Assembly: GCF_017115165.1 (NCBI RefSeq)
Contig: NZ_JABXKF010000082.1
Coordinates: 17,196-81,195, forward strand
From: Nostoc sp. LPT
GTDB lineage: Bacteria > Cyanobacteriota > Cyanobacteriia > Cyanobacteriales > Nostocaceae
Reading direction: 5' to 3'
DNA length: 64,000 nucleotides
Below are positions 4,801-18,364 of this stretch, in pieces. The position numbers and the translations under genes were made by a program. Numbering within the stretch: position 1 is the stretch's first letter; each line of letters begins with the position of its first letter. A model generated the notes under the pieces. The model saw only the letters and a program-made list of their open reading frames with translations, had not been told where the DNA came from and did no database searches.

Positions 4801-6102
4801 AGATTCGGAATAATGGAGTAAAGCCTGGTGGATGTCTCGATAAAGTTGGGCATTTTCCACTGCTAAGGCAGCACGATGAGTAATATCTATTGCTAAATTT
4901 AGGTCAGTGCGATCGTAGCGACGGTCTGATAGGGTGTTGATAAAGGTAATACAGCCGAGTATGCGCCCTTTTGCGATTAACGGCACAATCATTACAGATT
5001 TCATCCCCAATTGCCGAACAAGTTCTAAGTGTTCCTGATTCTGAGTAGTTGCTACTAATAGCGAGTCAGATACCTCTGAGATCAATTCACTTTGACCAGT
5101 TTGTAGTACTCTAGTAATTGCACTTGCACCCTTATAATCTGTCACATACTCTTGAAGTTTACGCGCCAACTCTGCTTTCGATGGGTCTGCATGAGCAATA
5201 GGTAGGCGGCGAATGGAGCCATCTTCATTTAAAATATCGACGCTACACCAATCAGCTAGCTGGGGAACTGAAATTTTGGCTATCTGTTGTAAGGTTTGTT
5301 CATAATCTAACGAAGTAGAGAGTAAACTACTAATTTGGGCGATATAACGCAGTCTTTCCTCAGCCTGCTTGCGCTCAGTAATATTTACACCTGCACAGGT
5401 GATACCTTGAATACTATTATCTAAATCCCTTAGTGGTTCAACTAGCAAATCATAGTAACGGTTTTCTTTACAAGTTGTTAGATAAACCTCTTGGCGGGTT
5501 GCAACACCAGTCTCTATGACCTTTAGCTTAATTGCCTGCAATTGCTCTGCTACTGAGGCGGGAAATAATTCATCATCAGACTTACCTAATATTTCCTCAG
5601 CAGTGTTTAGACCTTGAGGATTATGAATCCACTGATATCGCAAATCGCGATCCTGCTGAAATACCACGATATCTGAACTACTTGACGCTAATCGAAATCT
5701 TTCTTCACTAACTCTCAGCTTTTGGAGATTTTCATCCGCCCGTCTTTTAGCAGTTTTTAATGCCTCACATAAGATACTAAAGAGCAATCCTTGTAATGCA
5801 AATAACCCAATTCGCACAGAATTAGATAAGTCAAGACTCAGCTCATAAGCTGGAGGGAGAAAGAAGTAATCGCTCAGTAATGCAGACAAGGAAGTTGCTA
5901 ATAGCCCTGATTTCAAACCACCATACCAAGCGCTCACCATGACAGCGCTAAAAAATAGCAGGAAAGTAGTTCCATTCATGCTTAACCAGGGGTCTAGCAT
6001 TAACATTAACACTAATGCAAGTGCTACAATTAATACAGCGATGCCAGAACGCAATAACTGAGAATAATAAATAAGGGGCATGAAAAGTTTTTGAAAAACC
6101 AA
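1837..6102 (-). CDS. multidomain hybrid sensor histidine kinase (TM/DUF4118-like, PAS and GAF modules, HisKA, HATPase, receiver)
   Basis: 1421-aa ORF (TTG at 6102; first ATG at 6081, MPLIYY). N-terminal hydrophobic helices. H-box SHELRTPLNPILGW. ATPase boxes NLLSNAVKFT, DTGKGI, GGLGLGLAIV. C-terminal receiver ILLVDDQ...SDIGMP. Confidence 0.9.
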   Translation of the reverse strand: MVFQKLFMPLIYYSQLLRSGIAVLIVALALVLMLMLDPWLSMNGTTFLLFFSAVMVSAWYGGLKSGLLATSLSALLSDYFFLPPAYELSLDLSNSVRIGLFALQGLLFSILCEALKTAKRRADENLQKLRVSEERFRLASSSSDIVVFQQDRDLRYQWIHNPQGLNTAEEILGKSDDELFPASVAEQLQAIKLKVIETGVATRQEVYLTTCKENRYYDLLVEPLRDLDNSIQGITCAGVNITERKQAEERLRYIAQISSLLSTSLDYEQTLQQIAKISVPQLADWCSVDILNEDGSIRRLPIAHADPSKAELARKLQEYVTDYKGASAITRVLQTGQSELISEVSDSLLVATTQNQEHLELVRQLGMKSVMIVPLIAKGRILGCITFINTLSDRRYDRTDLNLAIDITHRAALAVENAQLYRDIHQALLHYSESLSLLDALLGAAPVAVCFFDRELRYIRINQVFADINGLAIEEHLGRKFREVLPAMAAELEPQLQHVLETGEPLLNMEISGETRGQPRRYGYWLGNYYPVKNTMGETVGIGIILADVTAAKQTEVALRESEERFRAMFNQAAVGITLVGLDGRFLQVNPALCEITGYSYEELIQMNFQEITHPDDLEVDWENARRVLAKEISGYSLEKRYIRKDGSIVWANLTSSAVWDANGQPKYALGIIEDISHRKRIEATQNFLVEASTLLAASLDYEITLENVANLAVPTLADLCIVDVFQEDWSSKQIAIAIADPTKLNILDEIRRRYQPQTRAKQLVRQLRLGISVFYPELSDSHLLQMSEDNEHRQLLQSLGIRSLMVIPVRSRGQLFGAISFFTAESGRYYQQADLALAEDIARRAATAIDNARLYQETQRSVNRTVLLQKITAAFSEALTPQQVADVVVNQGIAALKATGGSVVLLTEGNTTLKVVQAIGYPQTLINTWTSFPITAPNQIAETVRTGQPIFLENLAAMIARYPDLADVVTVIANNAWASIPLIVEGKVIGALGLSFTTGQIFNQEDRGFMLTLGQQCAQAIARAQLYEAEKIARAEAETANRIKDEFLAVLSHELRTPLNPILGWAKLLRTRKFDETTKIRALETIERNAKLQTQLIGDLLDVSRILQGKVRLNLHAVDLKIAIASALETVRLAAEAKSIQIHTVLSNDISKVLGDGDRLQQVMWNLLSNAVKFTPTDGLVEVRLEQVGLDAQIQVIDTGKGINPEFLPYVFDYFRQADAKTTRVFGGLGLGLAIVRHLVELHGGTVQAESLGEEQGATFTVKLPLLKNSELRVSSGEASQPEVSNDDTLLAGVQILLVDDQADVREFFSFALEQYGATVTAVESADEALQTLVQSKPDILLSDIGMPLMDGYMLLGEVRKLPPEQGGQIPAIALTAYAGELNYNQAMAAGFQKHLPKPVDPVDLAAAIISLIGHTSPSE

Positions 6103-6585: not shown

Positions 6586-7749
6586 TCAGTTAACATCCTT
6601 TAGTACTGCTACCAATTTTTCAATATGTGCTACTTGATGAGTTGCCATCACAGATATTCTGATTCGACTTGTGGGCACTGTGGGGGGACGAATTGCTGGG
6701 GCAAAAATGCCAGCATCTCTTAGCTGTTTTCCAGCTTTGAGGGCATCTGTGGCATTAGGCAATTGAAAACATAATATGGGTGATTCAGAAGGCAGCAATT
6801 TCAAGTTAGGTAACTGTTGCAGCAAAGTTTTCAAGTAATATATATTCTCCCACAATTGGGCACGATGTTGCGGTTCTTGTTGCACGATCTTGATTGCTGC
6901 TAAGGCTGCGGCTGTATCAGCAGGTGAAAGTCCAGTGGTATAAATCCAACTGGGTGCGCGGTTTTGCAAAAAGTCAATTAGGGCAGTACTTCCTGCTACA
7001 TACCCGCCTAAACTACCTAAAGCTTTACTTAGGGTGCCAATTTGAATTAATTGCTTTCCTGTACACCCAAAATATTCGACACATCCAGCGCCAGTTTTTC
7101 CTAGTACCCCAGTGGCATGAGCTTCATCGACTAGCAGCATACAGCTAAATTTATCAGTGAGATCCAACAGTGCAGGTAACGGACATAAATCGCCATCCAT
7201 GCTGAAGACGGTATCAGTAAGAATCAAACAGCGTCGGTAATTTTGCCGCTGCTGGTTCAACTGAGTTTTTAATACTGCCATATCACAGTGCGGATATTCC
7301 ACAACTGCTGCACCACTGAGAATCGCTCCATTTTTCAGACTGGAATGATTAGATTGGTCAGAGAAAATTAAATCACGCTTGCCAACAAGGGCGGTAATTG
7401 CACCCAAATTTGCTAGATATCCAGAACTAAATACCAAGGCATTTTCTGTTTGTTTAGTAAATGCGATCGCCTCCTCTAACTCCCTGTGCAATTCCCGATG
7501 CCCACTGAGTAATCTAGAACCAGTACTACCAGTCCCAAATTCGGCGATCGCAGCAGTTGCAGCTGCCATCAAACGCTCATCTCCAGCCAATCCCAAATAG
7601 TCATTGCTGGCAAAATTAATTACCTCTTGCCCAGCTAAAACCACCGTTGCACCCGGACGACCATTAATAGGTTGTACTGAACGATACCAGTCTGCCCGAT
7701 GAATCGTTGCTAAGGACTGTTCTAGCCAAGCATAAGGGTCAGTAGGCAT
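6586..7749 (-). CDS. bioF: 8-amino-7-oxononanoate synthase
   Basis: ORF trimmed to the ATG at 7749 ([11 protein letters not shown]). The upstream 70 codons read through repeat DNA and into ruvA. Class-II aminotransferase pattern with PLP-lysine motif GTLSKALG. Confidence 0.9.
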
Positions 7750-7843
7750 GGGGAGTGGGGAGTGGGGGAGCAGGGGAGCAGGGAGCAGGGGGCAATAAGA
7801 AATAACTAATGACAAAGGACTAATGACTAATGACAAATGACAA
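7750..7843. repeat. G-rich repeat plus degenerate heptamer (STRR-like) array
   Basis: ggggagtggggagtgggggagcaggggagcagggagcaggggg is followed by actaatg/acaaagg/actaatg/actaatg/acaaatg units between bioF and ruvA. Confidence 0.6.
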
Positions 7844-8476
7844 TTAAACTTGTTCACTGCTGAGATGAGCGATGGCTTGTTTAATCCAGTCTTCGACATA
7901 AGCATCTTTGGGTAGTCCGATGTCTTCGCTGACCACATGCAGGGCGTGACTGACTTCATGGGCAGTATATCCCAAGGCGAAGAGGGTCATTTGCACTTCT
8001 TCGAGAATTCCCGGTGCTGGCCCGCCTGTGGCGACGAAGAACCCGGCTGATTTGCGCCACTCAACTAATTTGCTTTTCAGTTCCAAACAGATGCGTTCGG
8101 CGATTTTTTTACCGACACCGGGAGCCTGAATTAGGATTTGTGTATTGCCGGCGATAATTGCTTGGACTAAATCTGGTAGTTCCAGAGTATCTAGGAGTGC
8201 GATTGCTAAGGCTGCACCAATACCTGTGACAGTCAGCAAGTGGCGAAATAAATCGCGTTCGGCTGGGGAAGCAAAGCCATATAGAAAGGGCACTTCTTCG
8301 CGAATTTGGAAATGGGTAAAAATTTGCGCCACTCCTCCTGACTCTGGTAACTGGTTTGCTAGGCGTTGGGGAACTTGCAAATCATACCCCAAGCCATTCA
8401 CTTCCAGAGTCAGAATCACGCGATTAGCGCCAATTGTTTGGATACCAGCGACTATACCTTTTAGATAACTAATCAT
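7844..8476 (-). CDS. ruvA: Holliday junction branch migration complex subunit RuvA
   Basis: 210 aa, MISYLKGIV...[12 protein letters not shown]...FLYGF...[23 protein letters not shown]...[12 protein letters not shown]. The two HhH motifs are typical of RuvA. Confidence 0.95.
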
Positions 8477-8817
8477 TACAAGAGACCAAAATATTTTAAG
8501 CCTTCAATAATTCCACCTGCACAAAAACATGAAGCCAGGTAGCGGTAATCAGCGGGATACTCTTTGTGCCATTGGAGTAACTCTTTGCGGGCATTCCCCA
8601 CAATGATTCCCCGTGCGTTGCCTACAGCAAATAAAGCAATATCATTACCTGAATCACCACAGACAACTGTTTGTTCTGCTGCAAATTTCCACTTCTGGCG
8701 TAAAAACTGCATTGCCTGACCTTTATCGCTGCTATGGGGTACAATGTCAAGGTCAATACCGCTACTGTAGATTAACTTTACATTTAATTTATATTTCTGC
8801 AACTGTGGTAAAATACC
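8476..8817 (-). pseudogene. 5'-truncated remnant of a sucrose-phosphate phosphatase gene (C-terminal ~110 codons only)
   Basis: The frame opens just after a stop at 8818-8820 and has only a TTG start. It encodes the HAD C-terminal half (DKGQAMQFL, VCGDSGNDIALF, IIVGNARKELL). The DxDxT N-terminal half is absent. Its TAA overlaps the ruvA ATG (TAATG). Confidence 0.75.
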
Positions 8818-8849
8818 TTATGGTTTTGTGATGGTGTAGTTTAGTAAGA

Positions 8850-9683
8850 GTGCTGGGGTATAGTGTGAGACAGTTTCTTTTAGTAACAGACCTCGACTAT
8901 ACGCTGGTAGGCGATGACCAAGCAATGGCAAGGTTAAATCAACGGCTAGAACAGCATCGTCAGCAGCACCACACAAAGATTGTTTATTCAACTGGGCGAT
9001 CACTTTTTCTTTACCAAAAGCTTATAGATAAAAAAGCACTTTTAGAACCAGATGTACTTATATGTGCTGTAGGTACGGAAATTTACTACAGTAACAGTAA
9101 TACTCTAGATTCTAAGTGGTCAGATTATCTCTCTGAAGGTTGGGATAGAGACTTAGTTGTAAATATATCTAAGGCTTTTAGTGAATTAAAGCCCCAGCCA
9201 AATACCGAGCAAAGACCTTTTAAAGTTAGCTATTTCCTTGAAGAAGAAAAAGAAATCTCTGGAAATTGTTTGTCAGACCTAGAGTCTCGTTTGCTAAAGA
9301 AAGGATTAGATATTCAAGTTATCTGTAGCCTTGGTAGCTCTACTCATATCAACAACCTTGATAATAATTACAAAGATGGTAAAGATTTAGAGATTCAAGT
9401 TCTAGATATTCTGCCACGTAAGGCTAATAAAGGTATGGCAATGACCTTTGTACGCGAAAATCTAGAAATAGATGTAGCGCAAACTGTTGCTTGTGGCGAC
9501 TCCGGTAACGATATTGCCCTGTTTGCTGACAAGAAAGAAAAAGGTATTATCGTCGGCAATGCAAAACAGGAATTGCTGAAATGGCACGAAGCTAACCCAA
9601 ACCCAAATCGTTACTTAGCAAAAGCTCAATTTGCGGCTGGAATTGAAGAAGGTTTGCAGTATTTTGGATTTTTTGAAGGATAA
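8850..9683 (+). CDS. spp: sucrose-phosphate phosphatase (HAD-IIB), divergent full-length copy
   Basis: 277 aa (GTG at 8850; alternative GTG at 8865 gives MRQFLLVTDLD). HAD motifs LVTDLDYTLVG, STGRS, NKGMAM, CGDSGNDIALF. Carries a ~20-aa insertion (THINNLDNNYKDGKDLEIQV) relative to the adjacent remnant. Confidence 0.85.
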   Translation: MLGYSVRQFLLVTDLDYTLVGDDQAMARLNQRLEQHRQQHHTKIVYSTGRSLFLYQKLIDKKALLEPDVLICAVGTEIYYSNSNTLDSKWSDYLSEGWDRDLVVNISKAFSELKPQPNTEQRPFKVSYFLEEEKEISGNCLSDLESRLLKKGLDIQVICSLGSSTHINNLDNNYKDGKDLEIQVLDILPRKANKGMAMTFVRENLEIDVAQTVACGDSGNDIALFADKKEKGIIVGNAKQELLKWHEANPNPNRYLAKAQFAAGIEEGLQYFGFFEG

Positions 9684-9686
9684 AAC

Positions 9687-12600
9687 TTAATTGTTGAGTG
9701 AAATTTCATTCGACACACCAGAAATTTTCCTATCCCTTGAAGCCCCCAATTCTTCCAGCGCATCAATTTGGGCTTCGTCTAAACCTTTAACGCCCGAAAT
9801 ATTCATACCCTGATATAGTTTGCCAAGTTCTATGGTATTAATACTAATATTAATATCTCCCTCTACATCCCAAAACTTGATAGTCTGATCTTGGCTACAG
9901 CTAATAAGTCTCTTACCATCAGGACTAAATACTACAGACTCTACAGCAAGCTTATGTCCTTTGAGTGTCTTGTGAGGCTTACTTTCCCACTTCTTATCTG
10001 CCTCACTTATTTTCCATAGCGTAATAAAGCCACCATGTCCAGCACTAGCAATCATTGGTTTTTCGGGATGAATAGCGACAGAAAGTATTTTTTGATCTCC
10101 AGACCAAGTGAGTTTGTGAATAAGTTCTCCAGAATCAACATCCCACAATTTTAGTTGTTGATCAAAACCCCCGCTAACCAATTTATTTTCAAGCAATGTA
10201 TTTTCCTTTGGGCCAAAAGCAATGCTATGAACTTGGTCTTTATGATCATTGATATCTTTTTCTTTGTCATCTGAATTTACGTTCGGAGTTTCGTATGAAT
10301 TTACGTTCACAGTTTTAGTTCCGTCTGATTTTACCTTTACCTCTACCTTTCTCAGATAAATCTTTGTCTCACGGTCGCTGCTAGCTAGATAATCACCATT
10401 TGGACTAAAAGCTAGGGATAGGACTCGGTCTTTGTGTTCAATAAATTCTTTTAATATTTGAGGAGATTTTATATTATCATCTAGATTCCATAAAACAACT
10501 TTGTTGTCATTGCCTGCGCTAGCCAATATATTGCTGTCAGCATGAAAAACAACACATCGAACGCGTTTACTATGTCCTGTCAGTTTATTATTTCCTTGTT
10601 CTGTCAGTGCATTATCCTTATTTCCTTGTTCTGTTAGTTCATTATCCTTATTTACTATTAACTCAATGGATTCCCACTTTTCATCTTGTAACTGCCACAG
10701 AAAAATCTTATTGTCTTCACCACCACTGGCTATAAGTGTTCCATCTTTGTTGAAAGCCACTGACCAAACCCAATCAGTATGTTTTAAAAGTTTGTGAATT
10801 GGAATATCTGAGCGGTCATGATAATTCCAAATACGAATTGTATTGTCTTCACCTCCACAGGCAAAAGTTATACGATCTTTACCATCTTTATCTTTCTCTT
10901 TACTAAATGCTACTGACCAGACGCGATTAGCATATCCTGTCAAGGTCTGTTTACATTTCCATTTGTCGTTTTCGTTTTCCCAATGCCAAAGTTTGACGGT
11001 ACGCCCATCGCCACCGCTTATTAAAAGTTTAGGTTCGTTAGTAGGGTTAGGGCAAAATGTTACACTTCTGATCAAATGTTCATGACCCTCCAAGTTGTCA
11101 ATGAAATTCCATTCTTTCCCAATTAACTTCCACAGCCGAATTCTATGTTCGCTCTGCCCTTTCAAATTCCTATCGATACATCCAACAGCAAGAATCTTCC
11201 CATCCTGACTAAATGCTAGCGTCCGTATCTGACTAATTATATTTTCATTTTCTGTTGGAAACTGGAGTTCTGTCAAGCTTCCTTCTCCGTTTAAATTTAG
11301 ATAATTGGACAATATCACTTTTCCATCCTCACCTCCACTGGCTATAATGTTTTGTTGACTATTAAATGCAATACATCGTATTACTCCTGTATGAACTCTT
11401 TTATTTACCGCTTCTTTCCGGGTGTTGAAATACCAAATATAAATATCTCCATCCTTCCCACCGCTAACTAAAAGGTTGTCATTAATAAAAGTCATACAAG
11501 AGATATTAGTAGCAGATAAACTTGGCAATTTTTTTTTCTCAAGAATATCAAAAAATTTTATCGCATCACCCTTTCCATCTCCTCCAAAGGCCAGAATATT
11601 TCCACTAGGGCTAAACGCTACTGATAATACACGTCCCTTTGATAATACAGATCCCTGTTCGTTAGGTAAGTCAATATTGCTAAGTTTGAGTTTGCCTAGA
11701 GTATCGGTTTCAATCTCGAATAACCTAACACTACCGTCTTCTGCTCCCCAAGCAAATCTCCAAGGTTCAGTCTCTGAACTAAAAGCAACCGACCAAATTT
11801 GACTTCCCCTTTCGTTCTGAAAATAACAGAGTTCCAAGTTCTCTGTATTATGAACTCGAATTGATCCATGAGCATCCCCTGTAGCAAAATAACTACCATC
11901 AGCATTAAAGGCTATGGAATGAATGCAACCTAACGGTTCAGAAAAAATCGAGTTTTTCAGGTCAGAATTAGAAAAATCTACTCCTGTTAAAATAGCCTCT
12001 CGTAAGTCAGCCTCCAAAATAGTGATACTAGATAGATCAAAGTAGCTAAAATCTTTTTTTAAGTCGAGCTTCAATAAAAAATTTAAAATATTACCTGCGG
12101 CGTAGTTGTCTTTTTTTGATAATTCGCCCTTATCACTATTCACTAAAAGCTTGCTCATCCGGTCTGTGAGATTTTCTTCACCCTCAAATCCATTCAATAG
12201 AAGGTTTTTAATTTCATTAATATTGTAAAAATTTGAATTATTGGAACTGTCATTTTTTGCTCCATGAAAAAACAATTTTCCTTTTAAAAAGTTAAGTCTT
12301 CCTGTTTTTAGTTCTTGAATAAGATTACCAATGTTACTAATAATTTTTAATTCCATTATTGTATTTAACAACTTTACTATAGAATTTTCACTATTTGGAT
12401 TTTGACGTGCAATTTTAATAAGTTCAAGAAGTTCTTCAAATGGTTCTTTTTCCTGATTATTTGGTAATTCAATTTGTTTTCCGCTACAAAGTGAGATTAA
12501 CTTCTCTTGATCATTCGATGAGAGGCTTTGAAACAGATTCAGAACTAATTTTCCTCCTATGATGTCGTCTTCTAATAAAGATTTTTGTTGTGGAGTTGAT

Positions 12601-13058
12601 CTAACATTATTTTCATCTTCCACAGGTGGTCTATTAGACTCACGCCCAATTGCTTTGATAAGTTTTTTTAAGCCATCTTGATAGTTTTCGTTATCTATGG
12701 GGATATGTAAGATAGATTCAAGAAAAAGTGGCTTTTTACAGTCTTTATAAAGTACTGGAATCAGGCGGCGATTAGGATCACGTGATTCTACTTTGGCACG
12801 TTTTTCTTCGTCAATTTGTAGATTTATCCATGCTTCTCTTTCGCGTTTAACCCATTCCGAATCAATGCTATCAGGTGAGAGTACCAGGACAAAAACACTG
12901 GCATTAAAAAGAGCTTTTTCAAGCTTTGCTAGTATACTATCCCCTGGAATAATTTCATCTTCATCTAGCCAAACCTCAATATCTTCACTCTTTAAATTTC
13001 CTTTTAATCTCCTAACAAAGTCTTTATCGCTACTGCTATAACTCATGAAAACTTGCAT
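9687..13058 (-). CDS. TIR domain / helical linker / pentapeptide-like / WD40-repeat protein (about 14 blades)
   Basis: 1123 aa. N-terminal TIR (FMSYSSSDKDFVRRL...VLVLSPDSIDSEWVKRE). Helical region of about 200 aa with no P-loop. Then ILEADLREAILTGVDFSNSDLKNSIFSE, then many WD40 units (VWSVAFS...GGEDNTIRIWN). Visibly AT-rich with no HIP1 seen. Confidence 0.9.
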   Translation of the reverse strand: MQVFMSYSSSDKDFVRRLKGNLKSEDIEVWLDEDEIIPGDSILAKLEKALFNASVFVLVLSPDSIDSEWVKREREAWINLQIDEEKRAKVESRDPNRRLIPVLYKDCKKPLFLESILHIPIDNENYQDGLKKLIKAIGRESNRPPVEDENNVRSTPQQKSLLEDDIIGGKLVLNLFQSLSSNDQEKLISLCSGKQIELPNNQEKEPFEELLELIKIARQNPNSENSIVKLLNTIMELKIISNIGNLIQELKTGRLNFLKGKLFFHGAKNDSSNNSNFYNINEIKNLLLNGFEGEENLTDRMSKLLVNSDKGELSKKDNYAAGNILNFLLKLDLKKDFSYFDLSSITILEADLREAILTGVDFSNSDLKNSIFSEPLGCIHSIAFNADGSYFATGDAHGSIRVHNTENLELCYFQNERGSQIWSVAFSSETEPWRFAWGAEDGSVRLFEIETDTLGKLKLSNIDLPNEQGSVLSKGRVLSVAFSPSGNILAFGGDGKGDAIKFFDILEKKKLPSLSATNISCMTFINDNLLVSGGKDGDIYIWYFNTRKEAVNKRVHTGVIRCIAFNSQQNIIASGGEDGKVILSNYLNLNGEGSLTELQFPTENENIISQIRTLAFSQDGKILAVGCIDRNLKGQSEHRIRLWKLIGKEWNFIDNLEGHEHLIRSVTFCPNPTNEPKLLISGGDGRTVKLWHWENENDKWKCKQTLTGYANRVWSVAFSKEKDKDGKDRITFACGGEDNTIRIWNYHDRSDIPIHKLLKHTDWVWSVAFNKDGTLIASGGEDNKIFLWQLQDEKWESIELIVNKDNELTEQGNKDNALTEQGNNKLTGHSKRVRCVVFHADSNILASAGNDNKVVLWNLDDNIKSPQILKEFIEHKDRVLSLAFSPNGDYLASSDRETKIYLRKVEVKVKSDGTKTVNVNSYETPNVNSDDKEKDINDHKDQVHSIAFGPKENTLLENKLVSGGFDQQLKLWDVDSGELIHKLTWSGDQKILSVAIHPEKPMIASAGHGGFITLWKISEADKKWESKPHKTLKGHKLAVESVVFSPDGKRLISCSQDQTIKFWDVEGDINISINTIELGKLYQGMNISGVKGLDEAQIDALEELGASRDRKISGVSNEISLNN

Positions 13059-13071
13059 TCGTGTTTCTCCA

Positions 13072-13554
13072 TTATTTATTCACCCCAGCAATTACTGCTA
13101 GCGCGTTGGCATATTCTTCCAAATCCTTCCTCAGAGATTCCAACTCAGCCCGCAATTTTGGCTCTTCAGACCAATTGCGCTCGTGTTCTTTAAGACTGAG
13201 ATGAGGAGGACGCGGGGCTTCCCATGTCTGCAATAGTGGATGCCACTTAGCCAGGAAAGGACGCAAACCATTATTGAGTACTGCGATCGCAATTCCTCCT
13301 ACTGAATCGCGTGATGCTCCCACATCTGGACCAGCCTCCTTTAGGACTTGTCTTGTTACAGGAAACAAGTTGTCTTCCCGTAACATTCCTTGGTCAACTT
13401 CCAAAGGCTGTACTGCAATGCAGGTAACAAGTTCAATGTAAAGTGACCAGGCGGCTCTGCGTTCTGTTGGATCTGCTTCCCATTCAACAGAACCAATACT
13501 AAAAGGAAGACTGAAAGAGACTTTTTTGATTTTTGCAGGGTCGGATTTAGGCAT
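13072..13554 (-). CDS. hypothetical protein, upstream operon partner of the TIR-WD40 gene
   Basis: 160-aa ATG ORF that ends 13 nt before the TIR ATG. A GGAG sits about 10 nt before that ATG. Motifs ERRAAWSLYIELVT and LRPFLAKWHPLL. Higher GC than the TIR gene and contains a HIP1 site. Confidence 0.6.
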   Translation of the reverse strand: MPKSDPAKIKKVSFSLPFSIGSVEWEADPTERRAAWSLYIELVTCIAVQPLEVDQGMLREDNLFPVTRQVLKEAGPDVGASRDSVGGIAIAVLNNGLRPFLAKWHPLLQTWEAPRPPHLSLKEHERNWSEEPKLRAELESLRKDLEEYANALAVIAGVNK

Positions 13555-13919
13555 AAATTTATTGCAACTATTATTGTGTTGAGCTAATGGTGCAATTAGA
13601 GAACTCTAATTTATGGCAGTTTATTTCCCCTTTTTACTCGCCAGATAAATGTGCTTTATTAACTTTTAGCCATTGCAAAACACAGGCTGCATGAAATTGT
13701 TTCTTTAGGTACTCTGTAATACTAATGTGGATAGCAGTTACAAATAATTGTTCAATAGAAAGCCTAGCTGTACACAACTACAAAGATACAGAATTAGATT
13801 CCAGAAAAATATTGTCAAATTAGGTAGATTGTTGCTAGTAATTTTCACTATATCAGTATTGCCTTTGCTGTTATATTTCAGGAAATAAATAGATTTATAA
13901 GTTGATTACAATGATTGCT

Positions 13920-14130
13920 GCAAATGCTTAAATGTTTCTTATACATGGAAGACCATTTGTTGCAAAGCATTAAGCATTTGCAAAAAAGAATTATACATTT
14001 GCGGCAAATGCTTAAACGTTTCTTATACATGGAAGACCATTTGTTGCAAAGTATTAAGCGTTTGGAAAAAAGAATTATACATTTGCGGCAAATGCTTAAG
14101 GGTTTCTTATATATGGAAGAACATTAGCTG
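13920..14130. repeat. 84-bp tandem repeat array (about 2.6 copies), each unit containing a long hairpin
   Basis: Units start at 13920, 14004 and 14088 (gcaaatgcttaa...). Each has gcaaatgcttaaatg ... cattaagcatttgc, a stem of about 14 bp with a loop of about 33 nt. The minus strand carries TGTATAAT. Confidence 0.85.
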
Positions 14131-14281
14131 CAAACGCTCAATTTTTGACAACTAATGTTTAAATTTGAGCGATGTCGAAAGAGACTTAGCACCGAAAAAC
14201 AATGTAGAGACTTAGTACTACGTCTCTTTGGCTTAATGCACTACGATACAATCAATTTAACCACCTCTACTGCCTGCGCTC

Positions 14282-14986
14282 GTGGTCAACACGTCTCCAC
14301 AACATTCGACTCCAACTGATTCTACCTCCGACATTCCGCCTCTTGAGAGTGGCGATCGCCTCATTCGTCCAGAGTTTGAGCGTCGCTATAATGCTATGCC
14401 CAACCTCAAGAAAGCTGAATTGATTGAAGGAGTCGTTTACGTGGGATCACCTTTGGGCTTTGAACCACACGCCGAACCGCATGGTAATTTAATGATTTGG
14501 CTGGGAAATTATAAAGTAGCCACGCTTGGTGTCAGACTAGGCGATAATCCAACTGTGCGGCTAGATTTAGATAATGAACCCCAACCTGATGCCATTTTGT
14601 TAATTGATGCAGCGTGTGGCGGATCATCTCATCTGGGTACTGATGGTTACGTGGAAGGTGCGCCAGAATTAGTAGCAGAAGTTGCCGCCAGCAGTGCTAG
14701 CAAAGATTTGTATGATAAAAAACGTGCCTATCGTCGCAATGGCATTCAGGAATATATTGTTTGGCAGGTTTTTGAGCGGACTGTTAGTTGGTTCAGCTTG
14801 CAAAATGGTGAATACGTAGCGCTGATACCAAATGCGTCAGGCATAATTCAAAGTCAAGTCTTTCCGGGATTGTGGCTTGATGTATCAGCATTAGTTGCGG
14901 ACAATATGCAACAAGTTTTAGCAGTGTTGCAGAAAGGGCTAAGTTCAGCAGAACATCAGACGTTTATTCAGCAAATAAGTATTTAA
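14282..14986 (+). CDS. Uma2-family (DUF820) putative endonuclease
   Basis: 234 aa with a GTG start. Pattern GDRLIRPEFERRY..MP..KKAELIEGVVY...PELVAEV.S.S....D...K...Y...GIQEYIVW is typical of the cyanobacterial Uma2 family. Confidence 0.85.
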   Translation: MVNTSPQHSTPTDSTSDIPPLESGDRLIRPEFERRYNAMPNLKKAELIEGVVYVGSPLGFEPHAEPHGNLMIWLGNYKVATLGVRLGDNPTVRLDLDNEPQPDAILLIDAACGGSSHLGTDGYVEGAPELVAEVAASSASKDLYDKKRAYRRNGIQEYIVWQVFERTVSWFSLQNGEYVALIPNASGIIQSQVFPGLWLDVSALVADNMQQVLAVLQKGLSSAEHQTFIQQISI

Positions 14987-15013
14987 AAAGGGTTAAACCG
15001 AATCATTATCATT

Positions 15014-18000
15014 TTAAGTTATGGTATTATTTAATTTAGTCTGCACCAGTGCCACAACAGCCTGAACTAACTCTTCTGGATCGAGGGGCTTGGTAACGTG
15101 CCGTTGATAGCCACTGCTTATCGCTCGCTGGGAATCCTCAACTCTGGCATAAGCAGTCAAAGCGATCGCCGGAATCTCTCCCCCTTTTTCGGGCGTTAAA
15201 GTGCGGATCTGTTTGATCAGAGAATAGCCATCGACTTCAGGCATCCCAATATCACTGACTAAAACATCGGGTTGAAAAGACTCCAAGTTTGCCAATACTT
15301 CCGTCGCAGAGGCGACAGTCAGCACTTTTGCTCCGTATTCCGCAAGTAATACTGTTAATAGCTCACGAGCATCGGGATCGTCATCGACTGTGAGAACTCG
15401 AATCCCCGTGAGTTCGAGTGCTTTTTGTGGCAACTCATCTGGCTGGTTGATTTCCGGTTCTACATTCAGCAGTGGCAATTGGACTGTAAAGGTGGCTCCC
15501 AAGCCTTCACCAGGACTATCAGCCTTGATCGTGCCGCCGTGCGCCTCAACTAACTGCCGAACGATCGCCAACCCCAATCCTAACCCCCCATACTTGCGAG
15601 TAATGGAAACATCTTCCTGACGAAATGACTCAAAAATATACGGGAGAAACTCTGGGTTAATGCCTTTGCCAGTGTCACTAACGATAATCTGTGCTCGATC
15701 ATCAACTCGCTCTAGTCTGGTTTCTACCCGTCCTCCCTTGGGGGTAAACTTGATCGCATTGGAAAGTAAATTCCAAACGATCTGTTGCAGGCGGTTGGAA
15801 TCTCCAGAGACTTGCCCAATATTCGGCAGTACTGAATGCAACACAATTGATTTGGAAAGGGCTGCTGTATTTACTGTGTCGATCGCAGATTCAATCACAA
15901 ATGCCAGATTTACAGGAGCAGCATCTATGCTAAGTTTGCCGCGCAGAATCTTGGCTACATCGAGCAAGTCATCAATCAGTTGAGTTTGCAGTTTTGCGTT
16001 GCGTTCAATGGTGGCTAAAGCTTCAGCTGTTTTGGTTTCACTAAATTTGCGGGTTTGTAGCAGTTTTGTCCAGCCGAGAATGGGGTTGAGAGGCGATCGC
16101 AATTCATGGGAGAGAATGGCCAGAAACTCATCTTTGATACGATTGGCGCGTTCGGCTTCGGCTCTGGCTGCTTGCTCCAATTTCAACAAGCGATCGCGTT
16201 CGATTTCAGCTTGTTTGCGAGCGGTGATATCCTGCACGTTGCCTACCATCCGTACTGCATTGCCCGCAGCATCATAAAAAACCTGACCTCTAGCCGCTAA
16301 CCAGCGAATGCCATCAGGATGTAGAATGCGGTAATCATCTTCATAGTACTCTTGCTGTTGCTGGATGGTGTGACTCACTATTTCATTGGCTGAGGTGCGA
16401 TCGTCTGGGTGCAGGTGGCTTAACCACAGTTCATAGCTGATTTCCTCTGTGGTTGGGTCAAGCCCGAACAAATTGTAGTACTCTTCAGATACATGTATAC
16501 TTTTGCGGGTAATGTCCCAGTCCCATAGTCCCAATCCCGTAGCTTTGTACGCCAATTTCAACCGGGCTTCGCTCTCCTGCAAAAGGAGTTCTATTTTTTT
16601 GCGATCGGTGATGTCTCGCGAAATCAATAAGATTCGTTCTAACTGCCCGGAGGCATCCAGAATCGGGCTAACGACCACTTCCCACCATTTCGCAGTACCT
16701 TTTGCAGTTGGGCAGTATCCGCGAAAAATGTTGACTTTGCCTGCTTTAGCGGCAGCGAGTGCCTGCTCTGCCTGTTGCCGATAGCTGCCTTCCCAGAAAC
16801 ATAGCCATTCAGTATTGAGATAGGAATTTAAGTCGTCAATTTCCATCAAACACAGTCCACCTATATTCATGTACAGGAGCCGCCCGTCCAGGCTTAATAC
16901 CTTGATGCAGTCAGAACTGCTATCTAAAATACGGTTTTTAAATTCTTCACTCTGGCGCAGGGCTTCGGCTGACCGTTTGCGTTCGGTGATATCTAAATCG
17001 ATACCAGCCATCTGAATTGGTTGTCCGTGTTGGTCGTAAAATACCTTGCCCTGGCTCAATGCCCATCGAATTTTACCGTTGCCATATACCACTCGAAATT
17101 CAATGTCATAGTCTTCTCCGTTGGCGACAGCACGATCGACGGCTGCCAGCACGCGATCGCGATCGTCAGGGTGCAACCGCGCGGCAAACATCTCGAATGA
17201 GCCGTCAAACTCTCCTGCTTCCAGTCCAAATAAGGCTTCCAGGTTATCCGACCAGGAAATTGTTCCCGTCTGGATATTCCAGTTCCATGTTCCCATCCGA
17301 GAAGCTGATAGTGCCAATTGCAGCCGTTCGTCACTCTGCCGTAATTCTGCTTCTACCCGTCTGCGATCAGTCAGTTCATTATGTGCCTGCTGATAGAGTT
17401 CCGCCTGTCGAATTGCAATGCCAACTTGAATCGCCAGTTCTTTAAGCAAGTCAATCTCTAAGGGTTGCCATCTTTTTGGTACAGCACAGTTGTGAGCAAT
17501 TAGCAATCCCCAAAAGTGATCATCATAAACAATCGGCACGACCAGATTAGCTTTTACTTGATACTGAGTCAACAATTCAACGTGGCATGGGTCAATGGTG
17601 CTATCTTGAATATCAAATATTGCTGTTACGTAACCCTGACAATAGGGTTGGCTATAATTTTCGACAAAGGCGGGATCGTTGCTGACAATTTCCAGTGGAT
17701 TCGATGCAAGGTATTTCTTAGCGAGGCAGGGATCGTACATAGTGGAGTAAAGGAGCGATCGCCACTCTGTCCCAACCGATTCTGCTACTACTGTCCCATC
17801 TCCGTCAGGTTTTAACTGAAAAACCAAGACGCGATCAGTGTGCAGAAATTCTCGCACTTCGGTTACAGTTGTCTGAAGAATTTCATCCAGATTTAGCGAT
17901 TGGTGAATTTTCTGGGTAATATGTGAAACTACGCGCTCTCGTTCAATACGCTGTTGTAATTGGGTGTGTAGCCGCACTGTTTCAATTGCCCCATTGACCG

Positions 18001-18364
18001 CTGTTTGCAGCTTTTCTGGGGTAATTTGCTCTTTGACAAGATAATCTTGTGCGCCCGCTTTGATCGCCTTAACTGCGATCGCCTCGTTGCCCTGCCCGGT
18101 GACAACAATCACAGGTAGGCAAGGCTGTTGGATTGAGGGTTGCAATTGTGCTATAAATTCCAGCCCGTCTAGGTCAGGTAGCCGATAATCAACCAACACA
18201 GCATCGGGCTGGTGTTGCTGCCAAAGTTCTAGTCCTTGCTGCCCCTGCGTTGCTTCTAAAAATGTATAGGAATATTCGCGATCGCGCAGCAAATATCGCC
18301 GATAGAGTTCTCGATCTTCTGGCGAATCATCGACAATTAAGAGAGTGCGCTGTTGCTGAGACAT
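15014..18364 (-). CDS. hybrid sensor histidine kinase/response regulator (REC, GAF, multiple PAS, HisKA, HATPase, REC)
   Basis: 1116 aa. N-terminal receiver LLIVDDSPED...VDYRLPDLDG. H-box SHELRSPLNPILGW. NLLSNAIKFT, DTGKGI, GGLGLGLAIV. C-terminal receiver VLTVDDDPD...SDIGMPEVDG. The kinase core is a paralogue of the 1837-6102 kinase core. Confidence 0.9.
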   Translation of the reverse strand: MSQQQRTLLIVDDSPEDRELYRRYLLRDREYSYTFLEATQGQQGLELWQQHQPDAVLVDYRLPDLDGLEFIAQLQPSIQQPCLPVIVVTGQGNEAIAVKAIKAGAQDYLVKEQITPEKLQTAVNGAIETVRLHTQLQQRIERERVVSHITQKIHQSLNLDEILQTTVTEVREFLHTDRVLVFQLKPDGDGTVVAESVGTEWRSLLYSTMYDPCLAKKYLASNPLEIVSNDPAFVENYSQPYCQGYVTAIFDIQDSTIDPCHVELLTQYQVKANLVVPIVYDDHFWGLLIAHNCAVPKRWQPLEIDLLKELAIQVGIAIRQAELYQQAHNELTDRRRVEAELRQSDERLQLALSASRMGTWNWNIQTGTISWSDNLEALFGLEAGEFDGSFEMFAARLHPDDRDRVLAAVDRAVANGEDYDIEFRVVYGNGKIRWALSQGKVFYDQHGQPIQMAGIDLDITERKRSAEALRQSEEFKNRILDSSSDCIKVLSLDGRLLYMNIGGLCLMEIDDLNSYLNTEWLCFWEGSYRQQAEQALAAAKAGKVNIFRGYCPTAKGTAKWWEVVVSPILDASGQLERILLISRDITDRKKIELLLQESEARLKLAYKATGLGLWDWDITRKSIHVSEEYYNLFGLDPTTEEISYELWLSHLHPDDRTSANEIVSHTIQQQQEYYEDDYRILHPDGIRWLAARGQVFYDAAGNAVRMVGNVQDITARKQAEIERDRLLKLEQAARAEAERANRIKDEFLAILSHELRSPLNPILGWTKLLQTRKFSETKTAEALATIERNAKLQTQLIDDLLDVAKILRGKLSIDAAPVNLAFVIESAIDTVNTAALSKSIVLHSVLPNIGQVSGDSNRLQQIVWNLLSNAIKFTPKGGRVETRLERVDDRAQIIVSDTGKGINPEFLPYIFESFRQEDVSITRKYGGLGLGLAIVRQLVEAHGGTIKADSPGEGLGATFTVQLPLLNVEPEINQPDELPQKALELTGIRVLTVDDDPDARELLTVLLAEYGAKVLTVASATEVLANLESFQPDVLVSDIGMPEVDGYSLIKQIRTLTPEKGGEIPAIALTAYARVEDSQRAISSGYQRHVTKPLDPEELVQAVVALVQTKLNNTIT

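Follow-up and report, generated by a model that had tools for sequence, protein, structure and literature searches.

In a stretch of 64,000 nucleotides from Nostoc sp. LPT (contig NZ_JABXKF010000082.1, positions 17,196 to 81,195 of the forward strand; called the window in the following, with coordinates counted from its first letter) two closely spaced genes were analyzed: one encoding a small protein of 160 amino acids, termed the partner, and one encoding a protein of 1123 amino acids with a TIR domain at its head and WD40 repeats at its end. With a confidence that falls slightly short of even, we read this pair as a two-gene Thoeris-like TIR module, a rare variant of a widespread cassette of a partner gene and a TIR-first gene, in which the partner would act as signal receiver. 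What looks new is an undescribed family of TIR partners, combined with an ATPase-less sensor of STAND descent in a Thoeris-like TIR pair. The elements on which the argument rests are the following, and the coordinates of the open reading frames (ORFs), their spacing of 13 nt and the GGAG element agree in every respect with an earlier description made from the letters alone (the sequence-only reading).

13072 to 13554, minus strand: partner gene, ORF of 160 amino acids
9687 to 13058, minus strand: gene for the TIR-linker-pentapeptide-WD40 protein, 1123 amino acids, an uninterrupted ORF free of stops and frameshifts
13059 to 13071, minus strand: spacer of 13 nt between partner stop and TIR start, including GGAG (direct sequence reading)
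12657 to 13052, minus strand: TIR domain, residues 3-134, AbTIR-like (Pfam TIR_2, E = 2e-24)
12840 to 12842, minus strand: codon of E73, the predicted catalytic Glu, with W69 four residues earlier (AbTIR alignment)
12519 to 12656, minus strand: spacer, residues 135-180, without detectable homolog, unaligned to locus L058 and to STAND proteins
12024 to 12518, minus strand: helical region, residues 181-345, with post-NTPase homology to NB-ARC-WD40 STAND proteins (tblastn, BLASTP)
11940 to 12017, minus strand: pentapeptide stretch, residues ~348-373 (Pfam PF00805, E = 5e-6)
9864 to 11930, minus strand: 14 WD40 units, residues 377-1065 (Pfam WD40, E = 1e-89; iterated self-made hidden Markov model, self-HMM)
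13420 to 13422, minus strand: partner codon 45, TGC (Cys) in place of a near-invariant Arg (family alignment)
13369 to 13374, minus strand: in-frame deletion of five residues at the start of partner helix 2 (REALTSLYNLF in the family, RED-----NLF here)
13595 to 13610, no strand: perfect 7+7 palindrome ATTAGAG-NN-CTCTAAT with a spacer of 2 nt, 40 nt 5' of the partner ATG

The TAA stop codon of the partner gene is followed by TGGAGAAACACGA (13 nt, with GGAG inside) and then by the ATG of the TIR gene; at homologous loci the gaps between the two genes are mostly 3-20 nt. Of the 87 full-length partner copies from Nostocales, 63 are immediately followed by a TIR-first ORF on the same strand, and 73 of 79 loci carry at least one TIR ORF within ~12 kb. 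A distant clade with partners of ~175 residues shows the reversed order, with a TIR ORF at most 200 nt 5' of the partner in 48 of 67 cases, so that a TIR gene in operon with a second gene across genomes, as in Thoeris, is present in both groups. In other lineages a TIR gene adjoins the partner in five of six loci inspected, some of them near restriction-modification genes, HicAB or transposases: a ThsB-then-partner pair in a Clostridia metagenome-assembled genome lies next to a methyltransferase, an SNF2 helicase and HicAB, a second next to an Eco47II restriction-modification system and another next to transposases, and at one inspected locus a TIR-TPR gene overlaps the partner by 4 nt. TIR and partner are also fused into single chains, in both orders (P0129, P0204). 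The link of the 160-residue family to TIR or WD40 genes elsewhere, which had been left as a point to check, therefore stands for TIR and falls for WD40, a tail found in only 2 of 62 TIR proteins including that of the window. Loci L007, L011, L016, L023 and L077 are 'TIR islands', in which 12 kb can hold as many as five TIR genes along with two or three paralogs of the partner; L016 is located on a plasmid of Calothrix NIES-4101.

Thoeris systems comprise the TIR protein ThsB and an effector and are grouped into types I-XI (Yirmiya et al., 2025, bioRxiv 10.64898/2025.12.03.692087). The cassettes resemble them as two-gene operons of a TIR protein with catalytic Glu and an unrelated second protein, and in the distant clade the TIR is itself a ThsB_TIR protein of ~180 residues, related to the TIR cluster of types V and VI: 40 of 58 upstream ORFs match Pfam ThsB_TIR and 24 match TIR_2, and this ThsB resembles TIR cluster 2741407742, from which validated type V/VI TIRs derive (Yirmiya et al., 2025, bioRxiv 10.64898/2025.12.03.692087). 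Some validated effectors, e.g., DUF6650/ThsG, are small domains without known toxic activity (Yirmiya et al., 2025). Unlike the effectors of Thoeris, the partner falls outside SIR2-SLOG, Macro-TM, SLOG, caspase, DUF2270, DUF6650, SLATT, CMP hydrolase, ion channel and HIT, and corresponds to none of those described (ThsA, ThsC-L). Furthermore, ThsB is small, whereas the TIR of the window bears a STAND-derived WD40 sensor of ~990 residues, and the cyanobacterial cassettes are partner-first. The same study lists 29 putative effector types, and neither the partner nor the cyanobacterial TIR motif was found in the covered portion of its Table S1, so that a prior listing is possible; nor is it mentioned in the passages covered of two surveys from the Aravind laboratory (PMC7159879, PMC8195603).

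The TIR domain of the window reaches 86.8 bits with Pfam TIR_2 (cut-off 28). Its closest solved relatives are 7uxr, AbTIR (7uwg/8g83) and PdTIR (3h16), and AbTIR, BtTIR and PdTIR are NADases. These enzymes give the best TIR sequence matches and share the Trp on helix αC and the catalytic Glu, but consist of TIR and coiled coil and have neither WD40 sensor nor partner. The catalytic Glu had been placed in the motif SEWVKRE, and alignment bears this out: in DSEWVKRE, W69 and E73 line up with W204 and E208 of AbTIR (W-x-x-x-E), and E73 is conserved to at least 90% among 62 TIR proteins adjoining partner homologs (alignment A2). In AbTIR the exchange E208A abolishes activity, and the cyclisation of ADP-ribose (ADPR) depends on W204 (10.1101/2022.05.07.491051). 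Two marks of TIR NADases were thus found in the protein of the window: the TIR_2 match and, on helix αC, a catalytic Glu that an aromatic residue precedes by four positions, as in cyclase-type TIRs.

Downstream of cyanobacterial partners the tails of the TIR proteins vary (n = 61), with 40 GUN4, three FGE-sulfatase and three GTPase tails. Long TIR proteins additionally carry TPR, dynamin-like GTPase, septin/AIG-like GTPases, HD-CE with a MORC-like ATPase, GUN4 with a ConA-like lectin domain, or iSTAND, and no canonical STAND NTPase was found in the ten long TIR proteins scanned. The tails (GUN4, FGE-sulfatase, TPR, WD40, lectin-like, GTPases, iSTAND) are sensor-type domains. Mean pairwise identity is 80% among partners versus 42% among the adjacent TIR domains, and their distances show no correlation (Spearman 0.03, Mantel p ~0.3). 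The co-evolution of partners that characterizes toxin-antitoxin or NADase-immunity pairs was accordingly not seen, and the missing co-divergence fits a coupling through an invariant small molecule rather than through a co-evolving protein interface.

Only one sibling of the window's TIR-WD40 protein was found, at locus L058 of Dolichospermum LEGE 00240. From residue 238 on the two bodies are 49% identical, while the TIR heads share only ~23-33%; in a comparison of the DNA, the WD40 bodies reach 66% identity, whereas the heads cannot be aligned. Judged by these alignments, the two proteins carry swapped TIR heads on a common body. Together with the non-co-divergence this swapping supports a constant partner with a shuffled TIR gene.

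The sequence-only reading had proposed a chimeric operon, with the effector gene swapped behind a resident partner. Shuffling of the TIR gene is backed by the comparative data just given; composition is no evidence for it here. The contrast itself is real: the partner gene has a GC content of 0.464 versus ~0.36 for the TIR gene (parts 0.30-0.37), and one highly iterated palindrome (HIP1) site lies in the partner gene (13283-13290) and none in 9687-13058. Other loci show it as well: at every one of 60 homologous loci the partner gene is the GC-richer of the two, with a mean excess of 0.074 +/- 0.032. The value of the window, 0.104, is reached by 23% of them, and elsewhere the window contains further stretches of 5-8 kb without HIP1. 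The contrast was therefore rejected as a sign of a recent swap, and the compositional argument for a chimera loses its force because the GC difference is family-wide.

The partner and its diverse relatives lack matches in Pfam, NCBIfam and PADLOC, and the partner also in PHROGs. The family is large nonetheless: more than 990 close relatives have 70-87% identity, mostly with 165 residues and mostly from Nostocales, in which the partner is multicopy, and a profile search (E <= 1e-3) yielded 1,691 clusters at 50% identity. The loci detected number more than 700, with 284 in species-representative genomes and 416 metagenomic ones for the distant clade alone, the metagenome scan having been done with the alignment of this single tight clade. 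A model of P0002, which is 90% identical to the partner of the window (AlphaFold, alignment of 72 sequences; predicted local distance difference test, pLDDT, 85.4; predicted template modelling score, pTM, 0.79), has a β-hairpin at residues 12-25 and then a bundle of four helices, the second of which spans residues 58-79; the model of the window's own partner, from a shallow alignment of 30 sequences, had a pLDDT of 52 and was discarded. Structural relatives were found neither by Foldseek in PDB and BFVD nor by searching PDB sequences with a profile; the matches were generic helical bundles only (TM <= 0.4, E > 0.05), and no fold was assigned. A death-fold or effector-associated adaptor domain, for which the partner and the linker of the TIR protein had been suggested as places to look, was detected in neither: EAD1-11, bDLD and TRADD-N models do not match, and Foldseek of the partner returned no Death-fold. 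SLATT, EACC1, EAD, TRADD-N, iSTAND, DUF2270, DUF6650 and DUF2188 were rejected for both, without a Pfam match at E <= 10.

The near-invariant residues of the partner are mostly polar or aromatic (W36, E41, T44, R45, E60, R68, N94, R98, P99, W104, H105, E112), a conservation pattern which suggests a putative ligand pocket. Partner domains are fused to XRE-type helix-turn-helix (HTH) domains (~10 of 53 longer relatives), to transmembrane (TM) segments, to a metallophosphoesterase with TM segments and to EAD1/EAD7. Known signal-receiver domains show a similar fusion pattern. Three proteins of 619-664 residues (P0125, P0134, P0141) have N-terminal TM helices followed by three to four tandem partner domains, the actinobacterial P0263 and P0264 combine the partner domain with a metallophosphoesterase and a multi-TM region, and P0198 is a BTAD-STAND-TPR regulator with a C-terminal partner domain.

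A receiver or effector role fits the partner better than that of an adaptor, as which it had first been described, or of a TIR-binding inhibitor. This role is favored because the partner pairs with ThsB-type TIRs related to the validated type V/VI cluster, because it is constant while the TIRs diverge, because its conserved residues are polar or aromatic, and because its domain is fused to HTH, TM, metallophosphoesterase and EAD1/EAD7 modules. To our knowledge, the second gene of every characterized conserved TIR operon is an effector that answers a TIR-made ADPR derivative.

A different division of labor is conceivable, in which the TIR is the terminal effector of a single-chain sensor-effector, leading to NAD+ depletion and abortive infection, and the partner regulates it directly. 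The partner could then be an inhibitor or antitoxin, as the position of its gene, first and translationally close like in antitoxin-toxin pairs, would suit, and the single-chain fusions would be compatible with autoinhibition; or it could be an assembly factor replacing the oligomerisation lost with the NTPase, as TIR-X proteins devoid of a STAND NTPase need another way to cluster their heads. AbTIR-like TIRs are, in addition, efficient NADases, and the partner has no evident effector domain. A binder of the TIR surface should, however, co-diverge with it, whereas partners of ~80% identity stand next to TIRs whose identity falls to 20-40%, without correlation. The distant clade is moreover TIR-first and of ThsB type, and characterized ThsB-type TIRs signal and do not kill, while the HTH, TM and phosphoesterase fusions that lack a TIR show that the partner domain works apart from it. 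We regard direct regulation as unlikely on this balance.

The body of the large protein was traced to STAND receptors. The spacer of residues 135-180 begins the most AT-rich stretch of the gene, the linker region 12054-12653 having a GC content of 0.30 and 500-nt windows across 12000-12749 of 0.28-0.29. Beyond it, tblastn against annotated plasmids matched the linker to proteins annotated as NB-ARC or NACHT, the best being WP_012599445.1 of Gloeothece PCC 7424 (E = 3e-6, 84% query coverage), and in pairwise BLASTP residues 181-379 align with residues 589-769 of this protein (28% identity, E = 2e-11). WP_012599445.1 consists of a DUF676 esterase (residues 39-173), NB-ARC (313-483/515), a helical region, a pentapeptide junction and WD40 repeats from ~760, so that the aligned segment lies strictly after its NTPase core. 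A homolog search with linker residues 136-374 came back empty, with the self-match missing as well. The absence of a P-loop noted earlier was confirmed: neither [AG]x4GK[ST] nor GK[ST] occurs in the 1123 residues, no NTPase family matches linker residues 141-395 even at E <= 10, region ~135-345 has no Pfam match, and no cryptic NTPase emerged in the linker. Since the linker matches only the post-NTPase segment of STAND proteins, the large protein looks like an ATPase-less STAND receptor. The pentapeptide stretch (26.3 bits, cut-off 20.2 in Pfam; weak matches to NCBIfam pentapeptide models) and the roughly 14 WD40 blades were likewise recovered, by Pfam and as 14 units by the self-HMM, enough for two seven-bladed propellers. 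Such a pentapeptide junction is common to many NB-ARC/NACHT-WD40 proteins, and the C-terminal repeat sensor of STAND receptors is present.

The suspected STAND-like architecture with a helical region is thereby substantiated through homology to the post-NTPase region of an NB-ARC-WD40 protein. With cyanobacterial STAND proteins of the type NB-ARC/NACHT-pentapeptide-WD40 (WP_012599445.1; related to Avs/bNACHT) the protein shares an N-terminal effector head, the helical region, the pentapeptide junction and the long WD40 array; unlike them it has no NBD/ARC NTPase core, that is, neither Walker A/B nor NBD-HD1-WHD, and is coupled to a small partner gene. As far as its domain homologies allow, it is best described as an NLR-like STAND receptor minus the nucleotide switch, to which the TIR head is joined by an AT-rich spacer of ~45 residues.

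A TIR head on an NTPase-dead STAND-derived module is also known from iSTAND (PF19995) proteins with N-terminal TIR (Kaur et al., 2020, PMC7159879). The linker of the window differs in having no PF19995 match, and MoxR and vWA genes, with which iSTAND forms ternary systems (PMC7159879), are absent among the window ORFs flanking the pair. At locus L008 (6479-7867), however, a partner 84-87% identical to that of the window is followed by a TIR-iSTAND protein (PF19995, E = 4e-12), so that a TIR joined to an inactivated STAND module stands behind the partner family in another, independent instance. EACC1-caspase systems offer a parallel of organization: a small constant component stands 5' of a gene with constant enzymatic head and hypervariable C-terminus, and both systems are enriched in multicellular bacteria (PMC7159879). 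Their components differ, a single-TM EACC1 and a caspase head as opposed to a predicted soluble four-helix bundle and a TIR head, and a sequence relationship was not found, there being no Pfam EACC1 or caspase match. By analogy, the cassette can be seen as Kaur et al.'s constant component with variable effector genes, built from other proteins.

The Thoeris-like reading implies the following course of events. The 1123-residue protein would be both sensor and signal generator, and what its WD40 propellers, pentapeptide stretch and helical remnant bind as trigger would most likely be a protein of foreign (phage) origin. As the ATPase switch that its STAND ancestors possessed is gone, activation would proceed through ligand-driven clustering, which is needed to join the TIR heads because the ATPase is missing. 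The clustered heads would then cleave or cyclise NAD+ at E73, W69 favoring a cyclic ADPR-type product, and the TIR would produce a signal instead of merely depleting NAD+. The partner, finally, would take up this invariant small molecule in a conserved polar pocket, proposed to comprise E41, T44, R45, E60, R68, N94, R98, W104, H105 and E112, and would execute or relay the response. Extended to the whole family, the proposal is that ~165-residue proteins of β-hairpin and four helices are receptors or effectors for TIR-derived nucleotide signals and define a Thoeris-type system which ranges from Clostridia to cyanobacteria and became a platform of interchangeable TIR sensors in the filamentous forms. 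One constant receiver would read many TIR sensors (WD40, TPR, lectin-like, GTPase, GUN4), some of them ATPase-less STAND receptors. This wider proposal we consider possible rather than probable.

Several findings weigh against a defence module with the partner as receiver. The partner has no recognizable killing or enzymatic domain and matches no described Thoeris effector or ligand-binding fold; for a defence gene it is strongly conserved across Nostocales (70-90%); and a minority of copies has no TIR neighbor (L002, L177). GUN4, the commonest tail, binds tetrapyrroles, a hint at physiological sensing as much as at phage sensing, and AbTIR-type TIRs may act as simple NAD+ depleters too. The neighbors of the pair are housekeeping genes (ruvA, bioF-like, spp, histidine kinase) and form no defence island, and the partner of this strain is altered at near-invariant sites by R45C and the deletion of five residues.

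Some of these points lead to the view that the cassette is not antiviral at all and serves physiological or developmental signaling in filamentous cyanobacteria, with tails that sense endogenous cues, for instance in NAD+ signaling induced by stress or pigment status or in regulated cell death within filaments. GUN4 fusions have been read as photosynthetic-status sensors (Kaur et al., PMC7159879), and GUN4 makes up 40 of 62 tails. High conservation and multiple copies of the partner in Nostocales and the housekeeping surroundings of the window locus point the same way, and the XRE-type HTH fusions in ~10 of 53 longer relatives suggest transcriptional outputs. Against such a role stands the pairing of the family with ThsB-type TIRs, seen in Clostridia as well as in metagenomes from soil and sediment, near restriction-modification genes, HicAB and transposases, and the hypervariable tails and swapped heads resemble arms-race diversification. 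A purely physiological function is thus judged very unlikely.

The alterations of the partner, which had escaped the sequence-only reading, concern this strain only. Position 45 is Arg in 538 of 560 domain instances and Cys in three, two of which are the window's own sequence, and among the same 560 instances the five-residue deletion occurs in the window sequence only; the columns lost include S (547 of 548), L (501) and Y (461). Because both changes hit near-invariant positions, the downstream arm may be weakened or dead in this strain. In a stronger form, the locus would be decaying or already non-functional, with a crippled partner allele and the TIR-WD40 gene as the orphan remnant of a rearranged, horizontally exchanged block, a view compatible with all other readings. 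Lesions found in one sequence of 560, the disorder over residues 29-84 in the shallow-alignment model of the window partner, the truncated S6PP (sucrose-phosphate phosphatase) gene beside a full copy with convergent stops 3 nt apart, and a block of low GC content at third codon positions extending over S6PP and TIR gene are in line with decay. Yet both ORFs are in frame, that of the TIR-WD40 protein over 3.4 kb without stop or frameshift; neither the catalytic motif nor any of the 14 WD40 units has been lost; the in-frame deletion could be tolerated; and the low pLDDT stems from the shallow alignment and not necessarily from the deletion. We consider decay somewhat unlikely.

The surroundings of the pair show possible traces of rearrangement. 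Two S6PP genes are arranged head to head: 8476-8802 (minus strand) is a C-terminal fragment (Pfam positions 141-247 of 247) that abuts ruvA, and 8850-9683 (plus strand) is a full-length copy of lower GC content with 56% identity to the fragment. The full copy converges with the TIR-WD40 gene, the stop codons lying 3 nt apart (9681-9689, TAA aac TTA), so that there is no space for terminators between them, and a block of low GC content at third codon positions (0.22-0.30) covers both genes. At L058 an N-terminal S6PP fragment (5409-5546) is located ~400 nt 5' of the partner gene; no such fragment was found upstream of the partner gene of the window. The S6PP fragments around the cassette may be scars of rearrangement or insertion. 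An insertion of the cassette into an spp gene was considered and is half supported, with the C-terminal fragment in the window and the N-terminal one in L058. A comparison with an orthologous empty site yielded nothing, as the flanking genes of the window were found at none of 80 genome loci.

Upstream of the pair, the palindrome reported in the sequence-only reading is present at 13595-13610. It overlaps a sequence block common to the upstream regions of L014, L016, L017, L022, L037 and L043, in which its two-fold symmetry is not kept; as a conserved operator it is therefore not supported, and it remains a possible, unproven candidate for a promoter or operator element. The AT-rich spacer of 727 nt 5' of the partner gene also contains an 84-nt tandem repeat in three copies (100/94/71% identity; 13915-14166) with internal inverted repeats and without Rfam match; the 70-residue ORF listed in this spacer consists of these repeats. 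Rfam gave no matches in 8000-15500, and a prediction of intrinsic terminators found none in 9400-14400. A Uma2-family putative restriction endonuclease-like gene (14282-14986, plus strand, Pfam E = 3e-32) is divergent from the partner gene and followed by a hybrid histidine kinase/response regulator of 1116 residues (15014-18364, minus strand). On the other side, a BioF-like aminotransferase ORF (6586-7959, minus strand, 457 residues, Aminotran_1_2) shares ~115 nt with the 3' end of ruvA; its first ~50 residues are probably a first-start-codon artefact.

Bacteria, plants and animals all use TIR signaling in immunity, and time and again new Thoeris effectors have uncovered new signals and ways of halting infection. 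The linkage described here provides a first genomic context for a large family absent from Pfam, NCBIfam, PADLOC and PHROGs. If the partner is indeed a signal receiver, it would represent a ligand-binding module of a new kind, probably with an effector mechanism that is new as well. As for the TIR-WD40 protein, it is a natural experiment on an NLR-like receptor that works, or fails, without its nucleotide switch, and the GUN4-tailed majority of the cassettes suggests that pigment status and NAD+-derived signaling may be connected in cyanobacteria.

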